From contig JAJYKK010000001.1 in the NCBI GenBank assembly GCA_021788645.1, positions 71,743 through 135,742 on the forward strand: 64,000 bases of DNA. Reading direction: 5' to 3'. Source of the DNA: Pseudomonadota bacterium. GTDB taxonomy: Bacteria > Pseudomonadota > Gammaproteobacteria > Burkholderiales > JAKAFK01. Made by a program: the position numbers and the translations under genes. Below the pieces are notes generated by a model, which made no database searches, was not told the DNA's origin, and saw only the letters and a list, made by a program, of their open reading frames with translations. This document shows positions 5,054 through 55,738 of the stretch, in pieces (positions within the stretch are counted from its first letter, which is position 1; each line of letters starts with the position of its first letter).

Positions 5054-5062
5054 AGCCACTCG

Positions 5063-6326: not shown

Positions 6327-6339
6327 ACCCAGAGCCGTT

Positions 6340-29404: not shown

Positions 29405-31255
29405 TTACAAGGGCGGGCGCGTCGATTCGTTCTTTCCCAGGCAGAGGAACCAGAGTGCCGACCATGGGGGCAGCTGGCCGGCGTCATGCTCCTCGGGCAG
29501 TCCCGCTGAAAGGAGCCGCTCTCCCGCGGGTGGCAGGATCCCGGTGACGCATTGATCGCTCAGGTTGGCAAGCAGATGAAGTTCGACGCCGGGGGCCTTT
29601 CCCCATGTCACGCGCAAGGCCCGCTCGGCAAGCGGCTCGAAGTGCGCCGGGCCCTTCTGTAGCGTGCTCAGCCAGGGCTGCAGCCGTTGTGCGCGAAGAT
29701 GGAGCAGCGTTCGGTACCAGGTGAGCCATTCCTGGTGCGCGCCCTCCTGCAGGCACCGCCAGTCCAGTTTGGAACGCAGGAAAGTCGCCTCGGAATTGGG
29801 ATCGGGGATGGCGAGGCGCTGCCTTTCATCGGCGAACTGGCGAAAGCGAGAGAATTCGGACCGGCGCCCCTGGGTGACCGCCCCGCCCAGTTCGCCCGCA
29901 TAGTCGCAAAAATAGAGGAACGGCGACGGCGCCGCGAATTCTTCTCCCATGAACAGCAAGACCGGCAGGGGCGCGAGCAGCAGCACCGCCAACGCGCAGC
30001 GCAGACGGGAGGGGTCGGCGAGCCTCGAGATGCGCTCTCCGAAGGCGCGGTTGCCGACTTGGTCATGCGTCTGCGCAAAGGCAACAAATGCGCTCAGGGC
30101 GAGACCGGTGGTGGATTCCCCACGATGCTCCCCGTTGCGGAAGGCGGAAGCCTCGCCCTGATAGGCAAACCCTTGCGTGAGGCAGCGCCCCAGCGCGGCC
30201 ACGGGAGCTTCGGCATAGTCCTGATAGTAGCCGTCCGTCTCGCCGGTAAGCAGGACATGCACCGCATGGTGGAGGTCGTCGTCCCATTGCGCGTCGTATT
30301 GCGCGGCGTGAGCCCGAGGCGTGAGGTAATGCGCGAGGTTGCGGTCGTTCTCCAGCACCAGATGGACTTCGCGGCGGTGCGCGAAGCGGCTGCGCACCGC
30401 CTGTGCCAGTTCTTCCAGGATGTCCGGCCGCGTGTCGTCGAAGAGGGCGTGGACGGCATCCAGACGCAAGCCGTCGAAATGATATTCCTCAAGCCAATAC
30501 AATGCATTGTGGATGAAGAAATCGCGCACGGTGCGCGAGCTCTGGCCATCGAAATTGATCGCCGCCCCCCAAGGGGTTTCGTGCCGGGTACTGAAGAAGG
30601 AGGGCGCGTAGTGATGGAGATAATTGCCTTTCGGGCCGAAATGGTTGTAGACCACGTCGAGCAGGACCGCAAAGCCTTTCTGGTGGGCGGACTGGATCAG
30701 GTGCTTGAGATCATCCGGCGCTCCGTAGGCGCCATCGGGCGCGAACGGCAGGACTCCGTCATAGCCCCAGTTGCGCCGTCCCGGGAAATCGGCCACGGGC
30801 ATGAGTTCCAGCGCATTAACCCCCAAATCCGCCAGATAGTCGAGTCGTCCCTCAAGCGCCCGGAAGGTGCCCTCGGGCGTGAAGGTTCCCACATGAATCT
30901 CGTAGCAGACCGCCTGCGCCCAGGGCTTGCCGGCCCAGCCCTCGTCGTTCCAATCGAACCGCAGCGGGTCGACCACCGCGCTGGGCGCCTCGGCGTCGTC
31001 CGGATTAGAGCGCGAGGCCGGATCCGGGACCTCGATCGCGCCATCGATACGGAAGCTGTACCGGGTCCCGACGCGGGCGGCAGCGGTCGCGAGTTCGAAC
31101 CATCCGTCGGGAAGGTGGTTCATCGCCCGCGAGGTCCGTTTGCGTTCTCCCAGCACCAGATCCACGCGTTGGGCAGCCGGCGCCCATAGGCGGAACCTGA
31201 CGCCGCCATCCGCAAGAATCTCGCTGCCGAAGGGCATTGCATGCCGGCTTTTCAT
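29405..31255 (-). CDS. treZ: Malto-oligosyltrehalose trehalohydrolase
   Basis: GVRFRLWAPAAQRVDLVL...YEIHVGTFTPEGTF...VVYNHFGPKGNY...GLRLDAVH GH13 motifs. Confidence 0.9.
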   Translation of the reverse strand: MKSRHAMPFGSEILADGGVRFRLWAPAAQRVDLVLGERKRTSRAMNHLPDGWFELATAAARVGTRYSFRIDGAIEVPDPASRSNPDDAEAPSAVVDPLRFDWNDEGWAGKPWAQAVCYEIHVGTFTPEGTFRALEGRLDYLADLGVNALELMPVADFPGRRNWGYDGVLPFAPDGAYGAPDDLKHLIQSAHQKGFAVLLDVVYNHFGPKGNYLHHYAPSFFSTRHETPWGAAINFDGQSSRTVRDFFIHNALYWLEEYHFDGLRLDAVHALFDDTRPDILEELAQAVRSRFAHRREVHLVLENDRNLAHYLTPRAHAAQYDAQWDDDLHHAVHVLLTGETDGYYQDYAEAPVAALGRCLTQGFAYQGEASAFRNGEHRGESTTGLALSAFVAFAQTHDQVGNRAFGERISRLADPSRLRCALAVLLLAPLPVLLFMGEEFAAPSPFLYFCDYAGELGGAVTQGRRSEFSRFRQFADERQRLAIPDPNSEATFLRSKLDWRCLQEGAHQEWLTWYRTLLHLRAQRLQPWLSTLQKGPAHFEPLAERALRVTWGKAPGVELHLLANLSDQCVTGILPPAGERLLSAGLPEEHDAGQLPPWSALWFLCLGKNESTRPPL

Positions 31256-31324
31256 GGGACACTTGTCCGAGTCCTGGGCGTGCAGATCCCGCCCGGATCG
31301 CGGGCAGGGGCGCGGCGCCTCGCC

Positions 31325-34300
31325 TCAGAACGGTGGCTGCCGCTCCGACAGATGGGTCGCCAGATAGGTGATTGCCGGCGCCACCAGCGGGGGGTGGAGG
31401 GCATCCCGGAGAATTTCGTCACAGGCGTTCTCCATGCTGAACAACTCGATCAGGGCATCGGCTTGGGTGTCATCTTCAGGGTAGGAGACGGCGCCTTGCA
31501 CCCCCTCCCGGTACCCGTCCAGAAACGCCTCGGCCATTTGGTCTCGCCATTCCAGTGCATAAGGCTCGATGCGCGGCCGATCCTCGCTCCGCTCGGCGCT
31601 CAGGCGGGCCAGTGCCGCATGCGCGGTGCGGTCGAAGGAGCGCAGCATCGTGGCGACGTCGCGCAACGGGGAGTGCTTGCTGCGCCGGGCCGCCGGCGGC
31701 AGGCCCGGTTCCCCTTCGAAGCCGATGATCACGAAGTCGTTTTGGGTGACCAGGACTTTTCCGAGATGGAGATCTCCATGATAGCGGGTCTTCATGGGCC
31801 GCAATGCCGCCGGCAGGAGCCCCTTGATGCGCCTGCTCAGGGGTTTGTGCAGCCGGATCAGCTCGTCGGCGCCGTCCCGCGCCGGCGAGGGAAGATGTGC
31901 ACGCTGCCGTTTGAGTTCGCCGATGGCCTGGGCGAGTTTCTTGCCGACGGCGGCGACCCAGGCTCCGCGTTCTCGTGCGGCTACAGGCTCCGGGCTGAAC
32001 GCCGGATCTTCGAGATCCCGGCAAAAGGCCTTGTGCAGCGCCCCTACCCGCGAGCCCAGCGTCCGCATCAGCGCCCTTGCCGCCCCATGGGGGGGGGGCG
32101 GCGTGACCGGCTCCTGGTGTCCGAGCTTCGATTCAAGGAAGCGCTCGAGAGACTCGAGCGCATAATCCCAGGCGGTACCCTGATTTTCAATATAGGCATG
32201 CAGCAAGGCCAGCGCAATCGGAGCCCCGTCCGGCGGTTGGTATTGTGCGCTCCCCACGAACGGGGCGACGTGCAGGAATGCCGATTGGGCGGCAAGAAAT
32301 GCGCCGATCTCGATCTGCGGGTCGGGGCCTTCCTCAACTTGCCGCATCCCTTTCAAGAACAGGCGTTCCCCCAAGATCGCGGCGCGGTGCTCGCGGGCGC
32401 CGGATGGGCGGGTGACATTTCCGAGCCGGCCTTCAGCGAGGGTCTCGAAGGCCGGGGTGGAAGAAAAGCGCAGCGTTCCCTGGCCGAAGGGCGCGTCCAC
32501 GTTTCGCCCGATGGCGTCGACGAGCGCCGCGCAAAATGCGTCGTCGGCGAATGCATCGACCACCAGCCCGGTGCGCGCCTTTTGGCGCACGCGTGCAATG
32601 GCAAAGGCGGTGAGCGCCCGATGCGTGTCGTCGTCGCCATCGTCCCAGGACAGCGCCAGCGGCACGAAGTAGCTGCGGATGTCCCCTTCCGGTGCACGGG
32701 CGCGGACCAGGGTCAGGAACCAGTTGTGAGCGGGCGGGCCCCATTCCGCGGCGGCAACGAAGGCGCCGTCAGCCATCTGCTTGCCTGGCAGTCCGGACCA
32801 CGGTTGCTGGGACAGGAAGCTCGGCAAGACTTCTTTTTCCAGACGCAACGCCGTCTCGCGCTCCAGTTGCGTGCGCACGGCAGGCGCGCCTGCCTTCGGC
32901 GGCAAGAAAGTGCGCCAGCCGTCGAGCAGCACCAGCAGCGGCAGTTCGGGGGGCGCCACGGGCTCTTCCGGACGCTGGGCGAAGGGGGCATCGCTTAGCA
33001 ATTCGAACCAATAAAAGCCGTAACCGGGCAGCGTCAGCAGATAGGGCAATTCCCCGATGCGGGGAAAGGGCGTGCGTCCCATCAGTTCGACCGGAATACG
33101 TTGCTGGTAGGGCGCAAGATCGAGCTCGACGGGTTGTGCGGAATGGGCCAGGTTGGCGACGCACAGAATCACCTCGGTCTGATAGACACGCAAATAGGCG
33201 ATGATTTTGCGGTTCGCCGGATCAAGCATGATCAGGCTCCCTCTCCCGAAGGCTGCGTGCGCCTTGCGGACCGTGATGAGACGCGTCGTCCAATTGAGGA
33301 GCGAGGAGGGATTGCGCGCCTGGGCCTCCACGTTCAAAGCCTCATAGCCGTATACCGGGTCCATGATGGGCGGGAGATAGAGGCGAGCGGGATCGGCGCG
33401 CGAGAAACCCGCGTTGCGGTCCGGGCTCCACTGCATGGGCGTGCGTACCCCGTTGCGGTCGCCCAGATACACGTTATCCCCCATGCCGACCTCATCGCCG
33501 TAATAGACGATGGGGGATCCCGGCATCGACATGAGCAGGCTGTTGATGAGCTCGATCTTGCTGCGATTGTTGTCCATGAGCGGCGCAAGCCGGCGACGGA
33601 TGCCGAGATTGAGGCGGGCGCGTTCATCGGCGGCGTACATCTCGTACATGTAGTCGCGTTCCCTGTCGGTCACCATCTCCAGGGTGAGTTCGTCATGGTT
33701 GCGCAGGAAGATGGCCCACTGGCAATTTTCGGGGATATCGGGCGTCTGGCGCAGAATTTCCACGATCGGGTGCCGGTCCTCCTGCGCGACAGCCATGTAG
33801 ATGCGGGGCATCAGGGGGAAGTGATAGGCCATGTGGCATTCGTCGCCATCGCCGAAGTACTCGCGCACGTCTTCCGGCCACTGGTTGGCCTCCGCCAGGA
33901 ACATGCGGTTGCGATAATGCTTGTCGAGTTCCGCGCGCATGTACCGGATCACGCGATGGGTTTCCGGCAAGTTCTCGTTATTGCTGCCTTTGCGCACGCA
34001 CAAATACGGGACGGCATCGAGGCGCAGCCCGTCGACGCCGATGTCGAGCCAGAAGCGCATGACCCGCATCATGGCGCGCACGACGTGCGGGTTGTTGTGG
34101 TTGAGATCCGGTTGATGGGAGAAGAAGCGGTGCCAATAGTAGGCGCGCGCCACCGGGTCCCATGCCCAATTGGAGGCCTCGGTGTCCTTGAAGATGATTC
34201 TGGTCTCCGGGAACTGCGTGTCGGTGTCGCTCCAGACGTAATAGCTTCGTTTGGCCGATTTCGGGGGGGCCCGGCGCGCGGCCTGAAACCAGGGGTGCTG

Positions 34301-34627
34301 GTCGGAGGTGTGATTGACGACGAGTTCCGTGATGACCCTTAGCCCGCGGGCATGGGCTTGCCGGATGAAGCGGCGGAAATCTTCCAGGGTGCCGTAAGGG
34401 GGATAGACATCGCGATAGTCGGAGATGTCGTACCCATCATCGCGCATCGGCGAAGGGTAGAACGGAAGCAGCCACAGCGTATTGACGCCGAGGGTGCGAA
34501 TGTAGTCGAGCTTTTGTGTGAGTCCCCGAAAATCGCCGATTCCGTCGCCTGTGCTGTCGAAATAGGCCTTCACGTGCAGCTCATAGATGATCGCGTCTTT
34601 GTACCATAGCGGATCGTCTTCGATCAT
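31325..34627 (-). CDS. treS: Trehalose synthase fused to a maltokinase domain (TreS-Pep2/Mak)
   Basis: N-terminus WYKDAIIYELHVKAYFDS...VVNHTSDQHPWF...GLRLDAVPYL (GH13 TreS). The C-terminal ~450 aa carry the kinase motif YHGDLHLGKVLVTQNDFVIIGFEGEP. Confidence 0.9.
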   Translation of the reverse strand: MIEDDPLWYKDAIIYELHVKAYFDSTGDGIGDFRGLTQKLDYIRTLGVNTLWLLPFYPSPMRDDGYDISDYRDVYPPYGTLEDFRRFIRQAHARGLRVITELVVNHTSDQHPWFQAARRAPPKSAKRSYYVWSDTDTQFPETRIIFKDTEASNWAWDPVARAYYWHRFFSHQPDLNHNNPHVVRAMMRVMRFWLDIGVDGLRLDAVPYLCVRKGSNNENLPETHRVIRYMRAELDKHYRNRMFLAEANQWPEDVREYFGDGDECHMAYHFPLMPRIYMAVAQEDRHPIVEILRQTPDIPENCQWAIFLRNHDELTLEMVTDRERDYMYEMYAADERARLNLGIRRRLAPLMDNNRSKIELINSLLMSMPGSPIVYYGDEVGMGDNVYLGDRNGVRTPMQWSPDRNAGFSRADPARLYLPPIMDPVYGYEALNVEAQARNPSSLLNWTTRLITVRKAHAAFGRGSLIMLDPANRKIIAYLRVYQTEVILCVANLAHSAQPVELDLAPYQQRIPVELMGRTPFPRIGELPYLLTLPGYGFYWFELLSDAPFAQRPEEPVAPPELPLLVLLDGWRTFLPPKAGAPAVRTQLERETALRLEKEVLPSFLSQQPWSGLPGKQMADGAFVAAAEWGPPAHNWFLTLVRARAPEGDIRSYFVPLALSWDDGDDDTHRALTAFAIARVRQKARTGLVVDAFADDAFCAALVDAIGRNVDAPFGQGTLRFSSTPAFETLAEGRLGNVTRPSGAREHRAAILGERLFLKGMRQVEEGPDPQIEIGAFLAAQSAFLHVAPFVGSAQYQPPDGAPIALALLHAYIENQGTAWDYALESLERFLESKLGHQEPVTPPPPHGAARALMRTLGSRVGALHKAFCRDLEDPAFSPEPVAARERGAWVAAVGKKLAQAIGELKRQRAHLPSPARDGADELIRLHKPLSRRIKGLLPAALRPMKTRYHGDLHLGKVLVTQNDFVIIGFEGEPGLPPAARRSKHSPLRDVATMLRSFDRTAHAALARLSAERSEDRPRIEPYALEWRDQMAEAFLDGYREGVQGAVSYPEDDTQADALIELFSMENACDEILRDALHPPLVAPAITYLATHLSERQPPF

Positions 34628-36586: not shown

Positions 36587-39166
36587 TCACGCGTCCTTCG
36601 GAAGCAGCGCGCGCAATTCGTAAATCAGATCCAGCGCCGCGCGCGGCGTGAGCGAGTCGGGCTCGATCGCCTTGAGCCGTCGCGCCACGGCATCATCGGG
36701 AGCGGGGGGCGGGGCCGTTGCCTGAGCGGTGAACAAATCGCCTTGTCGGCTGGTCTCGATGCTTTGCTGCTCCAGTTGCACGAGACGGCGCCTGGCGGCC
36801 TGGATGACCGCAGGCGGCACGCCCGCCAGTGCGGCGACCTGCAAGCCATAGCTTTGGCTCGCCGGGCCTTCTTGCACGCTGTGCAGGAAGACGATGCGGT
36901 CGCGATGTTCGACGGCGTCGAGATGCACGTTGGCGACCGCCCGCAGTTCTTCGGCCAAGCGGGTCAATTCGAAGTAATGGGTGGCAAACAAGGCGAAAGC
37001 GCGATTGCGCTCGGCCAATGCCCGGGCGCACGCATACGCCAGCGCCAGCCCGTCGAAGGTGGAGGTTCCCCGGCCGATCTCGTCGAGGAGCACCAGACTC
37101 TTGTCCGTCGCATTGTGCAGGATGTTGGCGGTCTCGGTCATTTCGACCATGAAGGTTGAACGTCCACCCGCCAAGTCGTCGGATGCGCCGATGCGCGTGA
37201 AGATCTGGTCGATGGGGCCTACGCGCGCGGACTTTGCGGGAACATACGAGCCGCAGCAGGCGAGTAGCGTGATGAGCGCGGTTTGCCGCATGTAGGTCGA
37301 CTTGCCGCCCATGTTCGGGCCGGTGATGAGCAGCATCCGGCGGGCGCGGCCCAGTACCGTGTCATTGGCCACGAAGGTGTCGACCTGGGTCTCGACCACC
37401 GGATGACGGCCCTCGCGGATGTCGAGCACCGGCTCCTCGGCATATTCGGGGGCGACGAGTCCGAGCGTCTGCGCGCGCTCGGCGAGGCTTGCCAGTACAT
37501 CCGCCTCGGCGAGCGCCGCCGCGATGTCCTGGAGGCGCAGGACGTGGGGCGCGAGCAAGGCGAGCAGCGCCTCGTAGAGCTGCCGTTCGCGGGCGAGCGC
37601 CCGCTCGGCGGCCGACAAGGCCTTGTCCTCGAATGCCTTGAGCTCCGGGGTGATGAAGCGTTCGGCGTTTTTTAGGGTCTGGCGGCGCCGATAGTCGTCC
37701 GGCACTTTCTCGGCCTGGCTGCGCGGGACTTCAATGTAGAAGCCATGGACGCGGTTATATTCCACTTTGAGCGCCGCGATCCCGCTGCGGCCACGCTCGG
37801 CCGCCTCGAGGGAAAGGAGGAAGTCGCCGCAGTTCTCATGAATGGCGCGCAGCTCGTCGAGTTCGGCGTCGTACCCCTCGCGGATGACGCCCCCGTCCCG
37901 CAGCATGCTGTTCGGTTCCGGCTTCAGCGCACGTTCGAGCGCCTCGAGCAGCGCCTCGTCGCGCGTCAGGCGCAAGGACAATGCCTGGAGGCGCGTCGCG
38001 GGAAGCGGCGCGATCGTGTCCACCAGAGACGGCAAGGTCTTCAAGGTGTCGCGCAGGCCCGAAAGATCACGTGGACGTGCCGTGCCCAACGCGACTCGGG
38101 CCGTGATCCGCTCGACGTCGGCGCAGCCGCGCAGGACTTCATGAAGCGTGCGCCACGGAGGGCATGCGTCGGTTTGGGCACACAGGCCGTCGATGGCCTC
38201 GAGCCGGTCTTGCAGGGCCGCGCGGTCGGTCAGCGGGTGATGCAGCCAATGACGAAGGCAGCGGCTGCCCATGCTGGTCGCCGTGGTATCGAGCAGCGAG
38301 AGCAGGGTGGGCGAGGGCTCGCCGCGCAAGGTCTCGGAAATTTCCAGGTTGCGACGGGTGGCGCTGTCCATCGACACATAGGCGCCGGTCCGTTCCACGG
38401 CGAGCCCGCTGATGTGCACGAGGGCGGCGCGCTGGGTATGCTGGACATAGCCTATGAGGGCGCCGGCCGCGCAGGTCACGCTTCCTCCTTTGGCCACGCC
38501 GAAGCCGTCCAGGCTCAAGACCTTGAACTGCGTGCACAGCGCGTCATGGGTAGTATCCGGGTCGAATTGCCACAGGGCGAGGGGTTTCAGCGCGGACTTG
38601 AACGACGCAAGCCCCACGTGCTGAAAGCCTTCCGGAACGAGGAGCTCGGCGGGTCGGACGCGCTCCAGCTCGGAGGCGAGACGCGACGGTGAGGTCTCGA
38701 GCGCGCTGAAGCGTCCGCTGGCCAGGTTGAGCCAGGCGAGCCCGACCCGCTCCCCCGCCGGAAACAGGGCGGCCAGCAGGCTGTCGCGGCGATCCTCCAG
38801 GAGCCCCGCGTCGGTCAGGGTGCCCGGCGTGATGATGCGGGTGACTCGCCGTTCGACGGGTCCCTTCGAGAGAGCGGGGTCCCCGATCTGCTCGCAGATG
38901 GCGACCGACTTGCCCAACCGCAGCAGACGGGCTAGATATTGCTCGCAGGCATGGTGCGGGACGCCCGCCATCTTGATGGGCTGCCCGCCAGAGGCCCCCC
39001 GCTGCGTGAGCGTGAGATCGAGGAGCCGTGCCGCCTCTTCGGCGTCCCGGTAGAAGAGTTCGTAGAAATCCCCCATGCGGTAGAACACCAGCATGTCGGG
39101 ATGTTCAGCCTTGATGCGCAAATACTGCTGCATCATCGGCGTGTGCTGAGGGATGGCTTGATCCAC
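36587..39166 (-). CDS. mutS: DNA mismatch repair protein MutS
   Basis: [31 protein letters not shown]...[15 protein letters not shown]...[12 protein letters not shown]. Confidence 0.95.
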
Positions 39167-39232: not shown

Positions 39233-39368
39233 CACTCGTGACAAAGGTCTGCAAGGTCTTGAATGACTTGAGCAATCGGCCCCGGCCCCCTATGATGATT
39301 CCCGTAAACCCAATGATGGCGAACGCCAGCGCGCCCGCCGCCGACGGATAGGCAAGCTTCGTGCACAT
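39219..39368 (-). CDS. Candidate 49-aa small membrane protein
   Basis: MCTKLAYPSAAGALAFAIIGFTGIIIGGRGRLLKSF... has one TM span followed by a basic tail. GC3 is about 73% by hand count. No clear RBS. Overlaps the sulfotransferase start head-to-head. Confidence 0.2.
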   Translation of the reverse strand: MCTKLAYPSAAGALAFAIIGFTGIIIGGRGRLLKSFKTLQTFVTSEHIV

Positions 39369-40104
39369 GAACGCGTCCAGCCCTCTTTCGAGAATTTTCC
39401 TGCTGAGCCATATGCGGGCCTTCACCAGCCTGGCGGGGCATATTCTCGGTTCGCATCCCCGGATCAACGGCTATTATGAGATGCATATCAGCTACGCGGA
39501 TGCCCACGCGCTGGACAGGCAGGTCGAGCGGTTTCTGGAAAGCCATGCGTTCAAGGCAAACAGCCGGTATCTTTTCGACAAGCTGCTCCACAACGATTAC
39601 GTGGTGAGCCCCGAGCGGCTCAGCCCCGTCAAAGTGAAGATACTGATTGCCTTGATGCGGCCGGAGCACACTCTCAAGAGCATCGTGCATCTGTTTGCGC
39701 AAAAGGAGGTTGAGGACCCTTATGCCTCACCCATTGAGGCGGCAAACTACTACATCGCGCGTGTCCAGGCGCTCGCCGACTTCAGCCGGACCGCCCGGTG
39801 CCCCTATTGCTATTATGATGCCGAGCTGTTTCAACGCGCCCCGGAGAAGCTGCTTCGCGCGCTCTCGGACTGGCTGGAGCTGGATTCGCCACTGAGCGAA
39901 CGGTATCGGGTGTTCGATCATACGGGAAAATCGCGCATGGGGGACTCGTCGGAACGCATTCATCGTGGCGCCATCGATAGGATGCCCACTGATTATGCCC
40001 ATATCGCCATTCCGCGCGACGTGCTGCAAAGGGCGACTGAGGCGTATGAGGAATGCCGTCGGCAGATTGCACGGCATGCCGCCGATTCGCTGGTTCAGGA
40101 CTAG
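39367..40104 (+). CDS. Sulfotransferase-family protein (NodH-like size and architecture)
   Basis: About 245 aa. The N-terminal RIFLLSHMRAFTSLAGHILGSHPRINGYYEMH occupies the position of the PAPS 5'-phosphosulfate-binding loop of NodH-type sulfotransferases. Assigned by pattern only. Start is ATG 39367 or GTG 39361. Confidence 0.6.
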   Translation: MNASSPLSRIFLLSHMRAFTSLAGHILGSHPRINGYYEMHISYADAHALDRQVERFLESHAFKANSRYLFDKLLHNDYVVSPERLSPVKVKILIALMRPEHTLKSIVHLFAQKEVEDPYASPIEAANYYIARVQALADFSRTARCPYCYYDAELFQRAPEKLLRALSDWLELDSPLSERYRVFDHTGKSRMGDSSERIHRGAIDRMPTDYAHIAIPRDVLQRATEAYEECRRQIARHAADSLVQD

Positions 40105-40211
40105 AAGACGGGCGAAGGCAGCCACCATGCCGCCCCCCGCGCGCCTGGCTGACGGTATCGGGCCCGCGTGGCCAAGACATTTCGGGAGGGGCTTTCGCAA
40201 TCAACCATCTC

Positions 40212-41678
40212 ATGCAGTTCCCCCATCCTTTCTTCTCGTCGCGCCCGGCGTGGAAGTGGTTCATCCTGATCAACGTGCTCGTCGGGGCTACGATGTCCGC
40301 CCTGGACGTCAGCATCGTGAACGTGGCCATGCCGACCATCAGGACCGATTTTGGGGCGTCGATGGTGACCATAGAATGGGTGGCGATGGCGTACATGCTG
40401 ACCTTGACGGTCATGTTGCCGTTTTTTGGCAGGCTCGCGGACGTGATAGGCCGCGCGAAGCTCTATAACCTGGGTTTCGTCGTTTTCACCGTGGGCTCCG
40501 GTCTCTGCGGCTTGGCCCGCTCCGCCCTGTTCCTCATCCTTGCTCGCATGCTGCAGGCGATGGGCGCGGGCCTTTTGCAGGCGAACTCCGTCGCGCTCAT
40601 CACGCAGGCCTTTCCGAGCCGCGAGCTCGGCAGGGCGATCGGCATTCAAGGGGCTGTCCAGGCGATGGCGATGGCGGTGGGACCGTTCATCGGCGGGATC
40701 CTGATAGGCGCGATCGGCTGGCGCTGGATATTTTTTGTCAACCTCCCCGTTGGCATTGTCGGGACGGTGGTCGGCCTGTACGTCCTGCCCCGGCACGTCG
40801 GGACGGGCGAGAAGCCGAGGATCGACTATCTGGGCCTGATATGCTTCGCCGCGGGCCTGGCGGCCCTCGTGCTGGCAGTCAACACCCTCGAGAGGAGCGG
40901 CTGGAGGGCTCCGCTCGTCCTCGGTGGCCTTGTGGCCGCCTGCGTGTTCCTGCCGGCGTTCGTCTTGAGGGAACTCAAGACGGGATTCCCCATGATCGAC
41001 CTGAAGCTCTTCAGGAACTGGACGTTCACGACGGGAAACGTGACCGGCATGCTGTCCTATTATGTGATGTTCGCCGTGCTCTTCTTGATGCCGTTCTATG
41101 TCGAGGATGTGCTCCGCTTCGGGCCCGCGCTTACCGGTGCCCTCCTCACCCCGGTACCGCTTGCGATGGCCGTCGCGGCTCCGCTGGCGGGGCACATCTC
41201 CGACCGGCACGGCGCGCGGATCGTGACGACGGCCGGGATGGCCGTGGCTTCACTCGCGTGCTTCGCCTTGATGTTGCTGAGCACGCACGGCCGCCTTCCG
41301 GTCCTGGCGGGCGAACTGACGCTGCTCGGCATTGGCATGGGCCTTTTCACGCCACCCAACAACAGCGCCATCATGTGGGCTGCGCCGAAGGACAAGTTGG
41401 GCCTGGCCGGCGGGCTTCTCAACATGATGCGGTCCTTGGGGCTCATTTTCGGCGTCGACATTTCCGGGTTGGTCTTCACGCATGTGGCACATGGCTATCT
41501 GGCGAGTAAGGGGATCGCGGCCGTCCGGCACGTCTCCCGGAACACGGCCATTCCCCTGCCCGTCAGGGATGGCGCGTTCATGCACGGCTTCATGTCGGTC
41601 ATGGGATCGCTGCTGGCGCTCACGGTCCTCTCGACCCTCCTATCGATCATGCGCAGGCAATCACCCGCGCGCGACTAG
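40212..41678 (+). CDS. MFS transporter, DHA2 (EmrB/QacA, 14-TMS) family
   Basis: WKWFILINVLVGATMSALDVSIVNVAMPTIRTDFGAS...GRLADVIGRAKLY...LARMLQAMGAG, with about 14 hydrophobic spans. Confidence 0.9.
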   Translation: MQFPHPFFSSRPAWKWFILINVLVGATMSALDVSIVNVAMPTIRTDFGASMVTIEWVAMAYMLTLTVMLPFFGRLADVIGRAKLYNLGFVVFTVGSGLCGLARSALFLILARMLQAMGAGLLQANSVALITQAFPSRELGRAIGIQGAVQAMAMAVGPFIGGILIGAIGWRWIFFVNLPVGIVGTVVGLYVLPRHVGTGEKPRIDYLGLICFAAGLAALVLAVNTLERSGWRAPLVLGGLVAACVFLPAFVLRELKTGFPMIDLKLFRNWTFTTGNVTGMLSYYVMFAVLFLMPFYVEDVLRFGPALTGALLTPVPLAMAVAAPLAGHISDRHGARIVTTAGMAVASLACFALMLLSTHGRLPVLAGELTLLGIGMGLFTPPNNSAIMWAAPKDKLGLAGGLLNMMRSLGLIFGVDISGLVFTHVAHGYLASKGIAAVRHVSRNTAIPLPVRDGAFMHGFMSVMGSLLALTVLSTLLSIMRRQSPARD

Positions 41679-43480
41679 AACAGGCTGTCCCAGGCATCCC
41701 GCTCGGCCCGATAATGCGCCAATGCCTCGATGATCTGTCGTTTGCGCTCCGCGCGATGCTCGGCGGACTCGATCTTGCGCCACGCAACCGAATGCTCGCC
41801 GAAGTTGCGGTCGATGTTTTCGATGAAGGCGTGGACCTGCTCGAGCGCGTCGGACAGCTCCGCCCGGCGTAGCCACCAGTGGCCCGCGTTGAACACCAGC
41901 GCACGCAATTGCCGGCTCTTCGCGACGATCGCGTCGTGCTTTTGGCGATAGAGCGCCAGCAGGTCGCTTTCTTTCGCGGCGATGATCGCCTCGATGGTCT
42001 CCTGGGCGAAAGGCCGAGTCACGTCCGCTCGCTTGACCAGCTCTTCGGCCGAGAACAACATGAGGTCGCCGAAGAACTGACGCTCGAACTCGTCGGACAG
42101 ATCGATGTGTTTGCGTTCTCCATCCCGTTCGACGCCGGGACGGAAATTTCCGCCCAATCCCTCCTCGGTCGAGCGGCGATGGAGATTGGGCATGTTGAAA
42201 GAGGCGAACCGTGCGCCGATTTCCGCGGCAATCAACCGCCCGGCGGTCGGTCCGGACATGCGCAGTCTCAGGTGACCGAAAGGAATGATGTATTTCAGTC
42301 CGGCGTAGTTGACGACGTAATTGCCCGGATAAACTGTCCGAGCCGGCGTGAGCCGTGCAAAACCGCTGCCATAGGAGAACCAGGTCTTGCGCGTCAGGTG
42401 CTCGCCGAAGAAGAAGGCATCCAGCCTGTGCGCGAACGCCGTTAGGCAGTCGGCATGGTCGTGGCGGCCGGATAGCCTGCAGGCGTAGGGAAATGCCGCC
42501 GGTTGCTGGGCAAAGCCGAAGAGCCCCGCCAAGTCGTGATAGGCGGCATCGCCTGGAAGCGGGCCCTGCGCCCCGTGAAACCGGCAAGCGTCATGGCCGC
42601 CCAAAGTCGACAGCCGCTCAAGGAAGGCGATGACATCATCAAGGAAATTCGCCGCCATCACCGCGGGGGACACCGGGGGATCCCCTACCAGCTTACCGGT
42701 GAGCATCAGCGTGCCGGTGGTGCGGAAGATCCGGTCGATGACGTGGAAGTAATTGAGTGCATAGACGATTTCCTCGCCGGTGTCGGTTCGCCGGTTCACG
42801 CAGAAATGCTGGTCGCTGTCGACGAGGTAATACAGCGTCTTGGCCTTGTCTTCCGTCAACTGCAGGAACTTGAGGTAGCTCAAGTTGCGATTGGCGGCTT
42901 GTCCCTTGCGATAAAATCTGTCCCGCGGCTGGCGGGTGAGTATCCTGCCGAGGCGCTCGCGCTGGCCCTGGGGCAGCGCGTGCAGAAGCTCATACTGCTC
43001 GTCCAGCCCGAAATGAACGACCTGCAAGCCTTTCTTCCGATACTCGTCTACCAGCTCTCGGTGCCGGCGGATATGGTGTTCGTCGCGGCTGTCCTCGGCG
43101 ACGACCACCTTGATCTTTTCCCATGCCCCGGATGCGTGGCCGCCATAGTCATACAGCGCGCACAGCTGATAGATGCTTTCCAGGCAGGCGCGCAAGTGGG
43201 GTGGCCGGTCCGCCACCGGGATGCCGAGGATGAAATGGTGGCGCTGATCATCGCCCCGCCGGGACACCAGCGCCTCCTGCTCGCGGAAGAGGGCCTGATA
43301 GTCCGCGAGCAGCGCCGCGAAGTCGGCTCCCGAAGCCCACATTGCTTTTTCCAGCCAAGGGTAGCATTGCTCGTAGCGCTCGATGAGCCCATCGAGCCCG
43401 TTCGGATCGGCGAGCGCCGGGAGGGCGGCTTGGTGGCGCGCGAGGCATCGCGCGAGCTGCGTTGTCGCGGGATCAGGCAT
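41675..43480 (-). CDS. 601-aa protein of unknown function with a GT-A-like (nucleotide-diphospho-sugar transferase) core
   Basis: HHFILGIPVADRPPHLRACLESI (beta1 of the GT2 type), KIKVVVAEDSRDE, KGQAANRN, and YLVDSDQ (DxD-like), plus a helical C-terminal ~150 aa. The ATG lies 6 nt after the stop of the ThDP gene. That it is a gene is solid; its function is not. Confidence 0.75.
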   Translation of the reverse strand: MPDPATTQLARCLARHQAALPALADPNGLDGLIERYEQCYPWLEKAMWASGADFAALLADYQALFREQEALVSRRGDDQRHHFILGIPVADRPPHLRACLESIYQLCALYDYGGHASGAWEKIKVVVAEDSRDEHHIRRHRELVDEYRKKGLQVVHFGLDEQYELLHALPQGQRERLGRILTRQPRDRFYRKGQAANRNLSYLKFLQLTEDKAKTLYYLVDSDQHFCVNRRTDTGEEIVYALNYFHVIDRIFRTTGTLMLTGKLVGDPPVSPAVMAANFLDDVIAFLERLSTLGGHDACRFHGAQGPLPGDAAYHDLAGLFGFAQQPAAFPYACRLSGRHDHADCLTAFAHRLDAFFFGEHLTRKTWFSYGSGFARLTPARTVYPGNYVVNYAGLKYIIPFGHLRLRMSGPTAGRLIAAEIGARFASFNMPNLHRRSTEEGLGGNFRPGVERDGERKHIDLSDEFERQFFGDLMLFSAEELVKRADVTRPFAQETIEAIIAAKESDLLALYRQKHDAIVAKSRQLRALVFNAGHWWLRRAELSDALEQVHAFIENIDRNFGEHSVAWRKIESAEHRAERKRQIIEALAHYRAERDAWDSLF

Positions 43481-43486
43481 GCAAGA

Positions 43487-45154
43487 CTAACGCCGTGAGG
43501 AATAATTCGGATAGGCATCCTGATCGAGCATGATCTCGATGAGATTGATGCCTTGACGGAAATCCATCGTCGCGAGCTTCGCCACCTGCGTCCCGTCTTC
43601 CAGACGGCAGTGCCTGATGCCGAACGATTGCGCCAGCAGCGCGTAATCGGGATTGGTGAAATCGCAGTCCATGAAGCGGTCGTGATAGAGATGATGCTGG
43701 TTCTTGCGAATCAGCCCCATGGTCCGGTTGTTGAACAGGATGACATTGAGCGAGATGCGGTGATTGACCGCCGTCATGAGTTCCATCGCACACATCTGGA
43801 ACCCGCCGTCGCCGATCGCGGCAAATACCGGCATGTCGAGTTCGCAGGCGGCGCCAATGGCCGCCGGGATGGCGTGGCCCAGCGACGAGATGCCGGTATT
43901 GGGGTAATAGCGGTCCTTGGCGGACACCCGGTAAAAATTCTGCGCAAAGACGATGTTGTCGTCGAACAGGGCGAGGCCGTCCGGAAAATGCTGTTCGAGC
44001 CACGCGTAAAAGGCGCGCACATGGTCGAACCGGTGGTCGAAGATCGCCTCGCCCGCCGCATCGGTCCGGGCCCGTGTGGCGGCGATGAAGGCGCCGATGT
44101 CTGCCGGTTCTTTCGCGGGCACCTCCTGGGCCGCGAGGGCGGCGTCGAGCGCCTGCAAGTAGGCGCCAAGGTCGGCGTGCACCGCGAGGTCCGCGCGGAA
44201 TGACTTCCCCAGCTGCTGCGCACAATGGTCCACCTGGATGAGCTTCTTGCCCGCCAACAGCCGCCTGTCCCAGGCATAGCTCGTTCTCTCGCCGAAGGCC
44301 GCACCCAGCACCAGCACCAAGTCCGCCTTCTCTTCCAGGTAACGCATGGCGTAACCGCAGGACGTGACGCCGAGGCTGCCGAGCGCCCGCGCGGATCGTT
44401 CGTCGATCGCACCCTTGGCCTTGAGGGTGCTGGCGACCGGGATGTCGAGGCGTTCGCTCACGCGGCGCAGCGAGGCTTGCGCATCCGCCCGGACGCAGCC
44501 GTGGCCGGCGATCATCAACGGGCGTTTCGCTGCCTGAAGCAGCGCCACGCTCGCATCGATGCCGCGCGCAGGGGGCGCGTGCTCGTCAACGGGGCGCGTG
44601 AAGCTGATCTGCTCAAGGATGCCGGCATCCACGCTCTCCTGCTGCACATTGAAGGGAATGCTCAACACGACTGGTCCCGGCGCCCTGCAAAGGAGGTGTT
44701 GGGCGGCTTGGTTCAGGACCGTGGGCAGGTAATCCGTGCGTTCGATCAATTTGTGGTAGCGGGTGATGCCTGCGAACAAGGCGACCTGATCGATGCTGCC
44801 TCCCTCGCCGGAGCTCTCCTGCAGGCCGCCCTTGCCGAAAAAATGGGTGGAGGTCTCGCCCGTGATGACCAGCACCGGCTGCCTCTCCGCATACGCGTTG
44901 GCGATTCCGGTCACCAGATTGGTCGCGCCGGGACCAGCCGTGGTGATGCACGCCGCTATTCTTCCCGAGGCGCGCGCGAACCCGCCAGCCATGAAGGCCG
45001 CCCCCTGCTCGTGCTTGACGAGCAAAGTCGTGATCCTGGACTCGTACAGCCTGTCGTACACCGGAAGAATATGGGCGCCGGGCATGCCGAAGACATGGGT
45101 GATCCCCAGGCGCTCCATGAACCTGACGATCAATTCGCTGACGGTTGTTTGCAA
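43487..45154 (-). CDS. Thiamine-diphosphate-dependent enzyme, acetolactate synthase large-subunit-like
   Basis: LGITHVFGMPGAHILPVYD...ACITTAGPGATNLVTGIANAYAERQPVLVITGE...AIGDGGFQMCAMELMTA (ThDP motif GDG..N). TTG start. No small-subunit gene nearby. Confidence 0.9.
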   Translation of the reverse strand: MQTTVSELIVRFMERLGITHVFGMPGAHILPVYDRLYESRITTLLVKHEQGAAFMAGGFARASGRIAACITTAGPGATNLVTGIANAYAERQPVLVITGETSTHFFGKGGLQESSGEGGSIDQVALFAGITRYHKLIERTDYLPTVLNQAAQHLLCRAPGPVVLSIPFNVQQESVDAGILEQISFTRPVDEHAPPARGIDASVALLQAAKRPLMIAGHGCVRADAQASLRRVSERLDIPVASTLKAKGAIDERSARALGSLGVTSCGYAMRYLEEKADLVLVLGAAFGERTSYAWDRRLLAGKKLIQVDHCAQQLGKSFRADLAVHADLGAYLQALDAALAAQEVPAKEPADIGAFIAATRARTDAAGEAIFDHRFDHVRAFYAWLEQHFPDGLALFDDNIVFAQNFYRVSAKDRYYPNTGISSLGHAIPAAIGAACELDMPVFAAIGDGGFQMCAMELMTAVNHRISLNVILFNNRTMGLIRKNQHHLYHDRFMDCDFTNPDYALLAQSFGIRHCRLEDGTQVAKLATMDFRQGINLIEIMLDQDAYPNYSSRR

Positions 45155-45956
45155 GTGACCGCATCCCTTTCAAATGCGCCGGATGTGCCGGAAGCACCCC
45201 GCTGAGGACAGCCATCGAAAAGGATTATTTTTAACACAACCAGCGGCGGGCCACAACGACGCCCACGCGACGGCCTGGCTCCTGCGCGGGGCGAGCGTGC
45301 GGCTCACGTGGCCTCAACGGCCGAACGCTGGCCGGTGCGCATGCCCGCTGCGAGCGGCGATGAGCCGGCCGGCCCGCCAGGGATCGAAGGCCGGTGTCCG
45401 CAGCACATGCCATGCCGACGACAACGGCGACCAAAGCCATGCCCGAACGCTTGCCGAGCCGGGAGTCAAGGCATCCGGCATGGCCGTCGCTCCGGGGCAA
45501 GGGAGAACACCTCGGGCGGCGAGACGCGGCCGTATGACGGGAGCGCCGCGATGTTGACCGTTCGCTTGACGAAAGCGGGCCGCCGCCTCAACGGCGAGAA
45601 CAAGCGGCGGAATCGACCACGCGCACCCCATGCGGACAGGCTACCCGCGAGGCGGCACGAGGCGCACGCAGCGCAGTGCCCCACGCGGGTCGTCTTGCGG
45701 AAGTGGCTGGACCGGTTCCCGCCCGGCGTGCTGCCGTACCTGGGCGAGGGCGCCCGGTGGCGATCGTCTAACGGGGGATGGCTTGTGGCGAGAAACCCGG
45801 CACCATTTCTCGCGGTCGCCCCGGGGACGAAACCCTTCAACCGATCGGCCGAGATGCGCCGCGGCTTTCGTGGGCTGCGGCGCTACATTATACTGCTGTC
45901 ATGCGAGTGCCGTTGCGCACACAACGCGATTGGGATGGAAGGGAGGCCGATACGCC

Positions 45957-48164
45957 ATGGTTCTCGAACGCCTGCTCGATCTGTTGCCGATCGGAGCCGT
46001 CGTTGTATCCCGCGACGGCACGGTCCGGCATGCCAACCGCCATGTCCTGTCCCTGTTCGGATACCAGCCTTCCGAGCTGATCGGCCACCCGCTCGGGATC
46101 TTGCTGCCGGAGGAAGTGCGCGTCAAGCACGAGCAATTCGTGCGCGCATGGTTCACGCGTCCCGTAGGGCGCGGGATGCACACGGGGCGGGTGTTCGTCG
46201 CGCGCCGCAAGAACGGCGCGCGCTTTCCGGCGGACATTTCGCTGACGAGAGTCGCCGATGGCGGCGAAGAATACGGGCTCGCCTGCCTGATCGATGTCAC
46301 GACGCTGCACACCCTGGGGCGGGTGCAGCGCGCCTTGGCGTTTTTGAGCGGCAGCAACCGCATCCTGTTGCGATCGACAGGCGGCGACGTCATTTTGCAG
46401 GATGTTTGCCGCCTGGCCACCGAGACGGGAGGCTACCGACTCGCGTGGATCGGGGAAGCGCAGGCGCTTGAGGGCAAGCCGGTGCGCGTCTTGGCCCGAG
46501 CCGGTCAGGCCGTCGACTACATGGAAGCCCTCTCGGTCAGCTGGGCGGAGGATCCGCTGGGGTATGGCCCGACCGGGAGGGCGATTGTGCATGCGCGTCC
46601 CATCGTGTGCCGCTTCATCCGATCGGACCCGGCCTTTGCCCCCTGGCGCGAGCGGGCGCTGGCGCACGGCATCGAGTCGGCCGCGGCGCTGCCGCTGAAG
46701 GTCGACGGTCGGGTCTTCGGCGCGCTTTCCCTTTATGCGGATGTGCCCGATGCCTTTGACGGCGATGAGCTAAGGCTTCTGGTCGAGGTTGCGGATGACG
46801 TATCCTTCGGCGTCGAAACCTTGCGGCTGCGCGAAGCGCACCGACGGGCCGAAGCACAATTGCGCCGATCCGCCCGGGTCGATGCGGTCACCCAGGTCGC
46901 CAACCGAGCGGGCTTGTCCGCATTCCTGGAAGAGGAGATTCACCGCGGTAGGGGCGGTGCGCTCATTTTCGTGAACCTGCGCCGCTTCAAGGAGATCAAC
47001 CATACGCAGGGCTATGCCATGGGGGATGCCGTGCTCAAGGCCTCGGCGCACCGGCTGGCCGGCATCTTGACTCCGGGGGAGCAGCTTGCGCGAATCGGTG
47101 GCAGCGAGTTCGCGCTCGCAGTCCCCGAGGGTGACGAGGCCGCCGCGCGTCGGGCGGCGGAGCGCATCCGCAACGCGCTCGCCGAAAAGCTGCTGGTCGA
47201 TGGACTTTCCGTCTCGCTGGGGGTCAAGGTCGGCGTTGCCCGCTACCCGGCGGGGCGCGCGACGCCCGACGAGGTCTATGCCGATGCCGGGCTTGCCGCC
47301 CAGTTTGCCGATCCCGAGTCGGGCGGCATTCGGTTTTATTCGCCGGCGATGAGTTCCGCGTTCGCCCGGCGCCTGGATATCGCCCGGCGCCTGCAGGCGG
47401 CGTTGCGGGAAGAGGCGCTGGCGCTCTTTTACCAGCCGAAGGTTGACATCGCCTCGGGCCGGCTCGTCGGTGCCGAGGCGCTGCTTCGCTGGAACGATGC
47501 CGTGCTGGGTGCGGTCCCCCCGGATCAGTTCATCCCCGTCGCGGAGGAGCGCGGCCTGATGCCAGAGCTGGGCAACTGGGTGATCGCCAGCGCCTGCCGG
47601 CAATTGCTGTCCTGGCAAGACGCGGGCCTGCGATTCCCGGGCCGGGTGAGCGTCAATGTTTCCGTCGCGCAGTTCAACGTGCCGGATTTTGCCGCGACGG
47701 CGGCTCGAATCGTCGAGGCGGCCGGTGCCTCGGCGGCGGACCTGGAATTGGAGCTTACCGAAAGTCTCTTCGTCGGGGACGGCCCGGCGACCATCGAGGC
47801 GATGAAGACGTTGACGGCCAAGGGGTTTGCACTGGCTATCGATGATTTTGGCACCGGCTTTTCCTCGCTCGCCTATCTGTCGCGTCTGCCGGCCGGCACC
47901 CTGAAAATCGACGTGAGCTTTGTCCGCAACATGCTGGAAAGCCCCAACGACCACGTGGTCGTACGAGCCATCATCGGGATGGCGCGAAGCCTGGGGATGG
48001 ATCTGGTGGCGGAAGGCGTGGAGAGCGCCGCGCATGCGCAGGCACTGCTCGATCTGGGCTGTCCGACGGCGCAGGGCTACCACTACGGGCACCCGGAGCC
48101 GGCGGAGCCGTTTGCGCGACGCTGGCTTGCCGGAGGCGGCAGGTTCCCCGCGGCGGAGCGCTAG
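45957..48164 (+). CDS. PAS-GAF-GGDEF-EAL c-di-GMP signalling protein (GGDEF motif degenerate: GGSEF)
   Basis: RBS GGAAGGGAGG at 45938-45947. PAS ([23 protein letters not shown]), [14 protein letters not shown], and EAL ([32 protein letters not shown]). Confidence 0.9.
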
Positions 48165-53841: not shown

Positions 53842-55710
53842 ATGGCCTTATTGCAGATCGCCGAACCGGGCATGAGCACCGATCCCCATCGCCACCGCCT
53901 GGCGGTCGGGATCGATCTGGGAACGACCAATTCCCTGGTGGCGACCGTGCGCAACGGCATCTCGGTGGTCATCAACGACGAGCAGGGGAGAGCGTTGCTT
54001 CCGTCGGTGGTGCGCTACCGCCCGGAAGAGGCGCCGCAGGTGGGCTATGCGGCCCAGCGTGCCCAGAGCGAGGACCCCTACAACACCATCGTGTCTGTCA
54101 AGCGGCTGATGGGGCGCGGGCTTCACGATCTGGCGGACGCCGGCAACCTTCCCTATGCCTTCGTCGATGCGCCGGGCATGGTGCAGCTCAAGACCGCGTG
54201 CGGGATCAAGAGCCCGGTCGAGGTCTCGGCGGAAATCCTGAAGCGCCTGCGCGAGCGCGCAGAGCATGCGTTGGGGGGCGAGATGGTCGGCGCGGTGATC
54301 ACGGTGCCCGCCTACTTCGACGATGCGCAGCGGCAGGCCACCAAGGACGCGGCCAAGCTTGCCGGGCTCAATGTCTTGCGGCTGCTCAATGAACCTACCG
54401 CAGCCGCCGTGGCCTATGGGCTGGACAACGCGGCCGAAGGGATTTATGCGGTCTACGATTTGGGCGGCGGGACTTTCGACATCTCGATCCTGCGCCTTTC
54501 GCAGGGGATCTTCGAAGTCCTGGCGACCAACGGCGATGCGGCGCTCGGCGGCGACGACTTCGATCACCGCATTTACTGCTGGATCCTCGAACAATCGTCG
54601 CTGGCCCCGCTTTCGGCACAGGACACGCGCCTGTTGTTGACCAAGGCCAGGGAGGCTAAGGAGACCCTGACCGAATACCCCGAGGTGCGCATCACGGCGG
54701 TCCTGTCGACCGGGGAGATGGTCGATCTCCTGCTGACGGCCCAGGTGTTCGATGCGCTCACCGCGAGCCTGGTCGGCAAGACGCTCGGGCCGACCCGGAA
54801 GGCGTTGCGGGATGCGGGCCTCACCGCCGATCAGGTCAAGGGGGTGGTGATGGTGGGCGGGGCGACCCGCATGCCCCAGATCCAGCGCACCGTTGCACAG
54901 TACTTCAAGCAGGAACCGCTCAACAACCTGGATCCGGACAAGGTCGTGGCTTTGGGGGCGGCGATTCAGGCGAACGTGCTGGCCGGCAACCGGGTCGCCG
55001 ACGACTGGTTGCTGCTCGATGTCATTCCGCTGTCTTTGGGCATCGAGACCATGGGCGGGCTCGTGGAGCGCATCGTTCCGCGCAATTCCACGCTGCCGAC
55101 GGCCCGTGCGCAGGATTTCACGACCTTCAAGGATGGCCAGACGGCCATGAGTTTTCATGTGGTGCAAGGCGAGCGCGAGCTGGTCGCCGACTGCCGCTCG
55201 CTCGCCAAATTCGAGCTGCGCGGGATTCCCCCCATGGCGGCCGGGGCCGCGCGCATCCGGGTCACGCTGCAAGTGGATGCCGATGGCCTCTTGAGCGTGT
55301 CCGCACGTGAGGAAAGCACAGGGGTAGAGGCCTCGGTGGCCGTCAAGCCGTCGTATGGATTGACGGATGACGACATTACGCGGATGCTCAAGGATTCCTA
55401 CGTGCATGCCAAGGAGGATGTGCACGCGCGGGCGCTGCGCGAAGCGCAAGTCGAGGGCAGGCGCCTGGTCGAGGCGACGCAGGCGGCGCTGGCCGCGGAT
55501 GGGGACGCGCTGTTGTCCGCCGCGGAGCGCGCGGATATCGCCCAGGGGGTGAGTGCGCTTGCGGCAGCGCTGGAAGGCAGCGATCTGGCCGGTCTCAAGC
55601 GCGCGGTGGAGAAACTCAATGGCATGACCGTCGAGTTCGCCTCGCGCCGCATGGATGCGAGCGTACGCAAGGCGCTGTCGGGCCAACGGATCGAGGATGT
55701 GGAGTGTTGA
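53842..55710 (+). CDS. hscA: Fe-S cluster chaperone HscA (Hsp70 family)
   Basis: [15 protein letters not shown]...[19 protein letters not shown]...[12 protein letters not shown]. Confidence 0.95.
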
Positions 55711-55738
55711 TGGATGCACTAGACCGGGAGGGTGGCCG

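Follow-up and report, generated by a model that had tools for sequence, protein, structure and literature searches.

What is the role of a 601-amino acid (aa) protein with a glycosyltransferase-like core whose gene directly follows the gene of a thiamine diphosphate (ThDP)-dependent enzyme? This question is raised by a stretch of 64,000 nucleotides, called the window below, from a Pseudomonadota bacterium of the Burkholderiales (lineage JAKAFK01; GenBank assembly GCA_021788645.1, contig JAJYKK010000001.1, positions 71,743 to 135,742 of the forward strand). The protein, hereafter the target, is encoded at 41675..43480 of the window on the minus strand, with an ATG at 43480 and a TAG stop at 41675-41677. 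The initial annotation, made from the sequence alone, gave the same open reading frame (ORF) and the same length without stating the strand, and translation bore this out. It quoted the peptides HHFILGIPVADRPPHLRACLESI, KIKVVVAEDS, KGQAANRN and YLVDSDQ together with strings from the C-terminus, and all of them are found in the translation of the target. It proposed a core of the glycosyltransferase A (GT-A) type between helical terminal regions. We followed up this proposal using homologue searches, an AlphaFold2 (AF2) model, structural searches with Foldseek and a comparison of the loci that encode relatives of the target.

Distribution and GT-A fold of the target family

The target belongs to a real, widespread and unannotated family, of which it is the founding member in the window. 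A word-indexed search found homologues in at least 1,916 clusters at 90% identity, and a profile search in at least 1,924. An exhaustive search of 50%-identity representatives returned 293 homologues, 118 of them at E ≤ 1e-30. Because at least 1,916 clusters and 293 representatives were found, mostly of full length, the observation is far beyond chance. Most members have 545-653 aa and can be aligned from about residue 30 to the C-terminus. Relatives of the target are encoded in at least 560 of 185,579 species-level genomes. Sulfur oxidisers of the Beta- and Gammaproteobacteria predominate among the named hosts: Sulfuricella, Sulfurimicrobium, Thiobacillus (including T. denitrificans DSM 12475) and Thiohalobacter, and also Ca. 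Thiodiazotropha, tubeworm endosymbionts and Ca. Venteria (Thiotrichaceae). Nearly all members are labelled "hypothetical", one RefSeq entry among them, and two bear the automatic label "glycosyltransferase involved in cell wall biosynthesis" of the Joint Genome Institute (JGI). The profile search of Pfam that the initial annotation had suggested placed the target in no well-characterised family.

The final AF2 alignment held 84 sequences with 38-85% identity to the target, and the resulting model had a predicted local distance difference test score (pLDDT) of 90.1 and a predicted template modelling score (pTM) of 0.91. It replaced an earlier model, built with 49 close homologues, which had a pLDDT of 71 and gave weak GT-A matches. 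Using Foldseek against the PDB, we showed that the top ~40 matches of the final model are almost all GT-A-fold enzymes, with a probability of about 1.0. The best of them was the GT75 mutase MtdL (7xpr), with an E-value of 9.9e-4, a template modelling (TM) score of 0.53 on the target and 12% identity. The other matches included Chlorella virus hyaluronan synthase, PcManGT, mannosyl-3-phosphoglycerate synthase and XXYLT1, further mannosylglycerate synthase, COLGALT1, LH3 and RmlT, and also chitin synthases. The independent BFVD library returned mostly GT2 and GT-A proteins (best E 2.3e-4). Thus, the structure prediction and Foldseek search suggested by the initial annotation reveal a Rossmann-like GT-A core: a model with a pLDDT of 90 matches almost solely GT-A enzymes in both libraries, and the motifs stand at canonical positions. 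The E-values for the Rossmann-like nucleotide-binding domain are modest, from 1e-3 to 2e-4. Since the identities are only 7-14%, the target is, judging from the model, a very distant member of the GT-A fold, and the fold assignment is well supported.

Residues are numbered here as in the protein, and the coordinates were checked in this numbering; numbers in the model and in the alignment are lower by one, since the queries began at residue 2. The Rossmann-like nucleotide-binding half comprises residues 77-223 (42812..43252, minus strand), as delimited by the order of secondary-structure elements, the invariant columns and the Foldseek matches. Strand beta1 (residues 82-90) is followed by the PVADRPPHL loop and a helix, and strand beta2 (residues 123-129) by the invariant D130 within A-E-D130-S. 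The motif K192-G-Q-A-A-N-R198-N199 is placed at a helix start. Strand beta4 covers residues 215-220 (214-219 in the model), and D221-S222-D223 (42812..42820, minus strand) comes directly after it. Thus, in the predicted topology the target has a DxD-type motif at the C-terminal end of beta4, as in the GT-A superfamily, and its invariance and position make it a candidate divalent-metal/diphosphate site. In 46 representatives with identities as low as 23%, D130, N199, D221 and D223 never vary, and H434 is conserved at 90% or more. The initial annotation had proposed to check the conservation of the DxD in homologues, and D221 and D223 turned out to be invariant in the 84 aligned sequences as well. 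The family has two dozen invariant residues of a polar or catalytic type, the DxD included. In the model, the motifs picked out by the initial annotation occupy canonical GT-A positions, and this equivalence is topological, not atomic.

The most conserved part of the protein is the family-specific core of residues 224-461 (42098..42811, minus strand), presumed from its conservation and the model to form the acceptor side. It contains the motifs G266-D267-PPVSP, G359-E-H361-L-T-R364, R381 and H434-R-R436, and 33 near-invariant columns fall within residues 341-460. H434 ends the strand 425-434, and R436 is invariant in the 84-sequence alignment. The loop after H434 (model 431-460) has the lowest pLDDT of the model, 64-79. 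On either side of the GT-A half and the core lie helical regions. The N-terminal region, residues 1-76 (43253..43480, minus strand), has three helices at model positions 3-14, 27-48 and 50-74. It is poorly conserved (occupancy 0.80-0.95, mean frequency of the major residue 0.24-0.34) and matches no family. The C-terminal domain, residues 462-601 (41678..42097, minus strand), is all-helical, with model helices at 461-597, a pLDDT of 90-97 and 33% charged residues. Both termini are predicted as helical with high confidence and occur in every full-length member, and their sequences are poorly conserved. The initial annotation had described a helical N-terminus, of which about 75 aa are predicted helical, and a helical charged C-terminus, which agrees with the predicted all-helical last 140 aa. 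It could assign neither to any family, and the Pfam, NCBIfam and PDB searches returned no profile or sequence match for them. It had also reported no signal peptide or transmembrane span; the maximum 19-residue Kyte-Doolittle mean of the target is 1.31, under the threshold of 1.6 for a transmembrane-like segment.

The architecture of the target resembles that of MtdL. In the published MtdL structure, the GT-A half ends in a DXD and is followed by a novel core, a Mn-binding His287 at a strand end and the flexible loop A, which carries Arg289; a helical domain for oligomerisation forms the C-terminus. Like MtdL and the plant RGP/UAM proteins, the target has a GT-A half with the DXD after beta4 and a large non-canonical core, and like MtdL it continues with a strand that ends in a conserved His, a flexible loop that contains Arg and a helical domain at the C-terminus. 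Because His287, loop A and the C-terminal helices of MtdL are mirrored in the target, H434 may be the third metal ligand, and the helical domain may serve for oligomerisation or as a lid. The target differs from GT75 in having DSD instead of DDD, 601 instead of 376 aa, an extra N-terminal helical region and other genomic partners. We also looked for a self-glycosylated Arg, which in GT75 lies about 50 residues past the motif; the invariant and near-invariant columns of residues 224-363 contain no Arg. Membership of GT75 was rejected, as there is no Pfam profile match, the motif is DSD and no conserved Arg stands at the expected distance.

Linkage of the target to a ThDP-dependent enzyme

The gene upstream of the target (43487..45154, minus strand) encodes a 555-aa ThDP-dependent enzyme, as the initial annotation had recognised. 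Its Pfam matches, motifs, PDB relatives and linkage characterise it as an acetolactate-synthase-like carboligase and a conserved operon partner of the target. It matches the three ThDP-enzyme domains of Pfam, TPP_enzyme_N, TPP_enzyme_M and TPP_enzyme_C (E 1e-38, 2e-34 and 2e-30), and has a GDG-x26-NN motif (GDGGFQ...NN from residue 448) and an HEQG context of the catalytic Glu. Among the top 25 listed of the 52 NCBIfam families matched, the enzyme stays below every equivalog cut-off; its best scores, 329 bits for PRK07524 and 326 for TIGR00118, compare with cut-offs of 500 and 538. Acetolactate synthase, glyoxylate carboligase (Gcl), Xsc and AruI are among these 25 families. The closest solved relative is BbmA (E 8.5e-83), and CsmA was matched too. 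Thus, among solved structures the partner comes closest to CybE-type carboligases of 2-oxo acids and is a distant relative of them (282 bits for the BbmA/CsmA/CybE-type carboligases).

We compared the gene context in 89 close-clade loci (64-85% identity to the target, mostly betaproteobacterial) and in 85 distant-clade loci (~40-50% identity, gammaproteobacterial or metagenomic); a few of these loci are duplicates from one contig. In 43 of the 89 close-clade loci, those of Sulfuricella-like bacteria and not of Thiobacillus proper, the ThDP gene immediately precedes the target gene on the same strand. In the distant clade it is directly upstream in 67 of the 70 loci with room for it. In the window, the TAG stop of the ThDP gene and the ATG of the target are separated by the spacer TCTTGC (43481..43486, minus strand), without a Shine-Dalgarno (SD)-like tetramer upstream; the 6-nt gap given by the initial annotation is therefore exact. 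The tight link that it had noted is conserved: in 105 loci, the distance between the ThDP stop and the start of the target has a median of 8 nt, and it is 0-29 nt in 82 of them. An SD-like tetramer precedes the target start in just 15 of the 105. The short conserved gap and the scarcity of SD-like tetramers support an old, tightly coupled two-gene operon, and they are consistent with termination-reinitiation coupling of the two genes. At a member with 35% identity the ThDP gene overlaps the start of the homologue, and the most divergent member (locus L170, 28% identity) has no ThDP gene. In Ca. Venteria ishoeyi (locus L087, 7349-7987), a gene for adenosine 5'-phosphosulfate (APS) kinase occupies the place of the ThDP gene, 13 nt upstream of the homologue. 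This kinase is suggestive of sulfation but anecdotal, and a sulfation theme based on it was rejected, as it is a single case among the 85 distant-clade loci.

Lineage-specific neighbours and other features of the window

The family loci sit in unrelated housekeeping contexts, and the genes on the downstream side of the target depend on the lineage. In the betaproteobacterial clade, locus comparison and Pfam point to an accessory partner, a 247-aa protein, putatively a divergent member of the sulfotransferase family, encoded convergently with the target (39361..40104 in the window, plus strand). This gene was found in 71 of the 89 close-clade loci, at a median of 124 nt downstream, and in none of 68 distant-clade loci. 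All 24 tested members match the N-terminal part of Pfam Sulfotransfer_3 below or near the threshold (best E 3.7e-6); the copy in the window scores 17.5 bits against a cut-off of 27. Three relatives bear a precomputed PF13469 match, and the search for PDB sequences related to the 247-aa protein gave no match. The copy in the collection has 230 aa and begins at an internal Met. Because the 17 residues ahead of this Met (…PLSRIFLLSH; window 39361-39412, plus strand) are conserved in the homologues and open the Sulfotransfer_3 match, the GTG at 39361 is the likelier start of the gene.

In the distant clade, 48 loci have at least 2.5 kb of downstream sequence, and they fall into mutually exclusive versions. 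A 178-aa protein with a convergent Methyltransf_24 enzyme is present in 22 of them, the 178-aa protein alone in 8 and a ligase similar to PaaK/F390 synthetase in 12; the remaining 6 have none of these. The gene for the 178-aa protein (7662-8198 in locus L108, and in 41 other distant-clade loci) lies directly downstream of the target gene with a median gap of 21 nt. Its product carries an invariant N-terminal GRCGS[T/S]T motif and has no Pfam or PDB relative. Homology of the 178-aa and 247-aa partners was rejected, with an hhalign probability of 0.2%; the likeness of GRCGS[T/S]T is at the level of the motif only. At the most divergent member, L170, a homologous ligase follows (E 1e-17), and a UDP-galactopyranose mutase gene and a GT-B gene are near. 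The L170 region 1028-11254 encodes a radical SAM/SPASM protein, a 592-aa GT-B-type protein, UDP-galactopyranose mutase, PhyH, a nitroreductase, the PaaK-like ligase and an aldo-keto reductase, and it may be a distinct glycan or natural-product locus. The 592-aa neighbour as a paralogue of the family was rejected (probability 2.9%, not significant).

Between the target and the sulfotransferase-like gene, the window alone has a DHA2-family efflux gene of the major facilitator superfamily (MFS) at 40053-41678 (plus strand), convergent with the target and overlapping its stop by 4 nt. Among the other loci searched, only that of the closest relative (L005) keeps an MFS match, a 112-aa remnant in the same place. 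A PAS-GAF-GGDEF-EAL protein is encoded divergently from the ThDP operon (45630-48164, plus strand). An association of GGDEF-EAL genes with the family was rejected: they occur in 13 of 76 long loci, about one per 97 kb, which is the background density. Further away, a trehalose/alpha-glucan cluster (23609-34627, minus strand) contains a 1,724-aa fusion of 4-alpha-glucanotransferase (GH77) with an alpha-amylase-family domain, a 616-aa CBM48/alpha-amylase/DUF3459 protein (TreZ-like) and a 1,100-aa alpha-amylase-family protein (TreS-like). An ORF at 53848-56358 (minus strand) matches Pfam NAD-GH (PF10712) and overlaps a 622-aa ORF at 53842-55710 (plus strand); one of the two is probably a shadow ORF. 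The window also encodes a 1,020-aa DNA polymerase III alpha-family protein of DnaE2-like length (6340-9402, plus strand), a FimV-like protein (9512-11794, plus strand), FlhA (57574-59658, plus strand) and MutS (mutS, 36587-39166, minus strand). These four genes give the target no functional context. No Rfam RNA, riboswitches included, was found in the window, and the promoter and terminator scans of it performed no better than on shuffled sequences.

A possible two-enzyme pathway and its alternatives

Several known systems come close to the target or to its ThDP partner. Mannosyl-3-phosphoglycerate synthase of GT55 (2wvm) and mannosylglycerate synthase of GT78 (2bo7/2y4j) are cytoplasmic GT-A enzymes of the DxD/metal type and match the target structurally with a probability of 0.94-1.0. 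They use small hydroxy acids as acceptors, compounds of the class made by ThDP carboligases, and their products are compatible solutes derived from central metabolites. The likeness of these enzymes is structural only (TM-score on the target 0.35-0.45): they are ~220 aa shorter, have no sequence relationship to the target and are not paired with ThDP enzymes, and searches of Pfam, NCBIfam and PDB sequences gave no match to GT55, GT78 or GT81 (MPGS, MGS, GpgS). GT2-type enzymes, namely hyaluronan synthase (7sp8), PcManGT (6yv7) and viral GT2 proteins, match the model with E-values of 1e-3 to 2e-4, and the target shares with them the order of a beta1 loop, an acidic residue after beta2, G-x-x-x-R-N and the DxD. 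Unlike them, it has no membrane domain and has the family-specific region 224-461 and the helical domains; it and 49 family members fail to match Glycos_transf_2 (PF00535; CAZy GT2) even at E ≤ 1. In the CybE/CybF furanolide module, as proposed here for the target, the product of a carboligase is passed to the next encoded enzyme, and genes for a coenzyme A ligase and a methyltransferase lie nearby in both systems. CybF is a homologue of the thiolase-fold 3-ketoacyl-acyl carrier protein synthase III (KAS III), not a GT-A protein, and the identity of the target as a furanolide synthase was rejected for this reason.

We consider it quite possible, at a little under an even chance, that the target is a soluble metal-dependent GT-A enzyme that forms with the carboligase the core of a two-enzyme pathway for a small metabolite. 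We infer the donor, the acceptor, the metal ligands, the mode of coupling and the product as follows. The two proteins would be co-expressed, probably by termination-reinitiation coupling. The carboligase would decarboxylate a 2-oxo acid and condense the product with a second carbonyl compound to give a hydroxy-keto acid. The Rossmann-like half of the target would bind a nucleotide-activated donor through D130 and a divalent metal at D221-x-D223, probably with H434, and the family-specific core would form the acceptor site; the N- and C-terminal helices would make up an accessory domain that may serve in oligomerisation or as a lid. The target would then transfer a sugar or another nucleotide-activated group to the hydroxyl of the hydroxy-keto acid or of a close derivative. 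The simplest decoration would be O-glycosylation, as mannosylglycerate and mannosyl-3-phosphoglycerate synthases perform on small hydroxy acids. Lineage-specific tailoring would come last, by the sulfotransferase-family protein in the window and elsewhere by the 178-aa protein with the methyltransferase or by the PaaK-like ligase.

A number of results weigh against this pathway. The target has no Pfam match at E ≤ 0.01, and 49 family members have none at E ≤ 1; NCBIfam gave no match to the target, nor did phmmer and profile searches with three alignments against PDB sequences. A literature search by locus tags of the family found no paper on any member. The structural matches in the PDB are weak (identity 7-14%, E-values of only ~1e-3, TM-scores of at most 0.53), and the assignment of the DxD and of the His rests on predicted topology, not on residue-level superposition. 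The best structural match is a mutase, not a transferase; nucleotide-sugar-dependent glycosyl transfer is a predicted activity of the target, and the fold can also carry out the chemistry of a mutase, as MtdL shows. The two enzymes do not necessarily act on a common substrate, since the Thiobacillus clade has the target gene with no ThDP gene next to it. Finally, genes for nucleoside diphosphate (NDP)-sugar synthases or dehydratases do not recur near the target in ~170 loci (89 + 85).

The likeness to MtdL suggests another explanation, in which the target acts on a nucleotide sugar, either as an NDP-pyranose mutase similar to GT75/MtdL or as a self-glycosylating protein, and the ThDP enzyme modifies an NDP-sugar. 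YerE is a ThDP enzyme of branched-chain sugar pathways. The initial annotation was reminded of this chemistry by the pairing and, compared by description, the YerE-type systems do resemble the target pair in linking an acetolactate-synthase-like ThDP enzyme to a glycosyltransferase-fold protein. MtdL is the single best PDB match (E 9.9e-4, TM-score 0.53), its published architecture is mirrored in the target, and the most divergent member has a UDP-galactopyranose mutase gene in its vicinity. We regard this explanation as rather unlikely, because the target matches no Pfam family and hence not GT75/RGP, and has DSD and not DDD. Co-located genes for an NDP-hexose synthase and a 4,6-dehydratase, as in YerE-type clusters, do not recur in the 89 + 85 loci, nor do other NDP-hexose dehydratase or keto-sugar genes. 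The closest solved relatives of the ThDP partner use free 2-oxo acids. The suggestion of YerE-type branched-sugar chemistry is thus not supported by the gene context.

The target could also be an ordinary macromolecular glycosyltransferase, acting on an envelope polysaccharide, a lipid-linked glycan or a protein, that is merely co-regulated with the ThDP gene. The JGI cell-wall glycosyltransferase label on two members, the hyaluronan and chitin synthases, RmlT and LH3 among the structural matches, and the GT-B genes near two divergent members would fit such a role. This appears improbable, since the target has no transmembrane segment, the housekeeping contexts are unrelated, and envelope, flippase, polymerase and lipid-carrier genes do not recur in the ~170 loci; without functional coupling, a junction of ~8 nt would hardly have been kept across classes. 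A further alternative is that of a regulatory subunit. In ilv operons, the small-subunit genes of the ilvN/ilvH type come after the genes of the acetolactate synthase large subunit. The target gene holds this very position behind the ThDP gene with a tight, SD-poor junction, and its long helical termini could serve protein-protein contacts, as a non-catalytic regulatory or scaffolding subunit that replaces the acetolactate-synthase small subunit would require. We find this highly improbable, because the target has two dozen invariant residues of a polar or catalytic type, including the DxD, and because the family is kept without an adjacent ThDP gene in Thiobacillus, L087 and L170.

Returning to the carboligase and GT-A pathway, its product may be an undescribed glycosylated metabolite that derives from a hydroxy-keto acid and is typical of chemolithoautotrophic sulfur oxidisers, animal symbionts among them. 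Betaproteobacteria of the Sulfuricella/Thiobacillus type would sulfate it, and Gammaproteobacteria would methylate or acyl-ligate it. This proposal is speculative, and we consider it doubtful in this full form. If it is true, the candidates for the metabolite are a new compatible solute, a scaffold of a redox or thiol cofactor, or a signalling molecule, and the target founds a new family of glycosyltransferases. What is new within the GT-A fold is a widespread unannotated family whose members combine three parts in a distinctive architecture and whose carboligase partner is conserved. If the pathway is correct, the known glycosyltransferase-fold families gain one that neither Pfam nor NCBIfam contains and that at least 560 species-level genomes encode, and the named host genomes are mostly those of environmentally important sulfur oxidisers and of chemosynthetic animal symbionts. 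The module is small and occurs in cultured hosts (Thiobacillus denitrificans, Sulfuricella denitrificans), so its product could be discovered directly. The two genes would then represent a compact conserved pathway, and a carboligase paired with a GT-A enzyme would be a new logic for the synthesis of glycosylated small acids.

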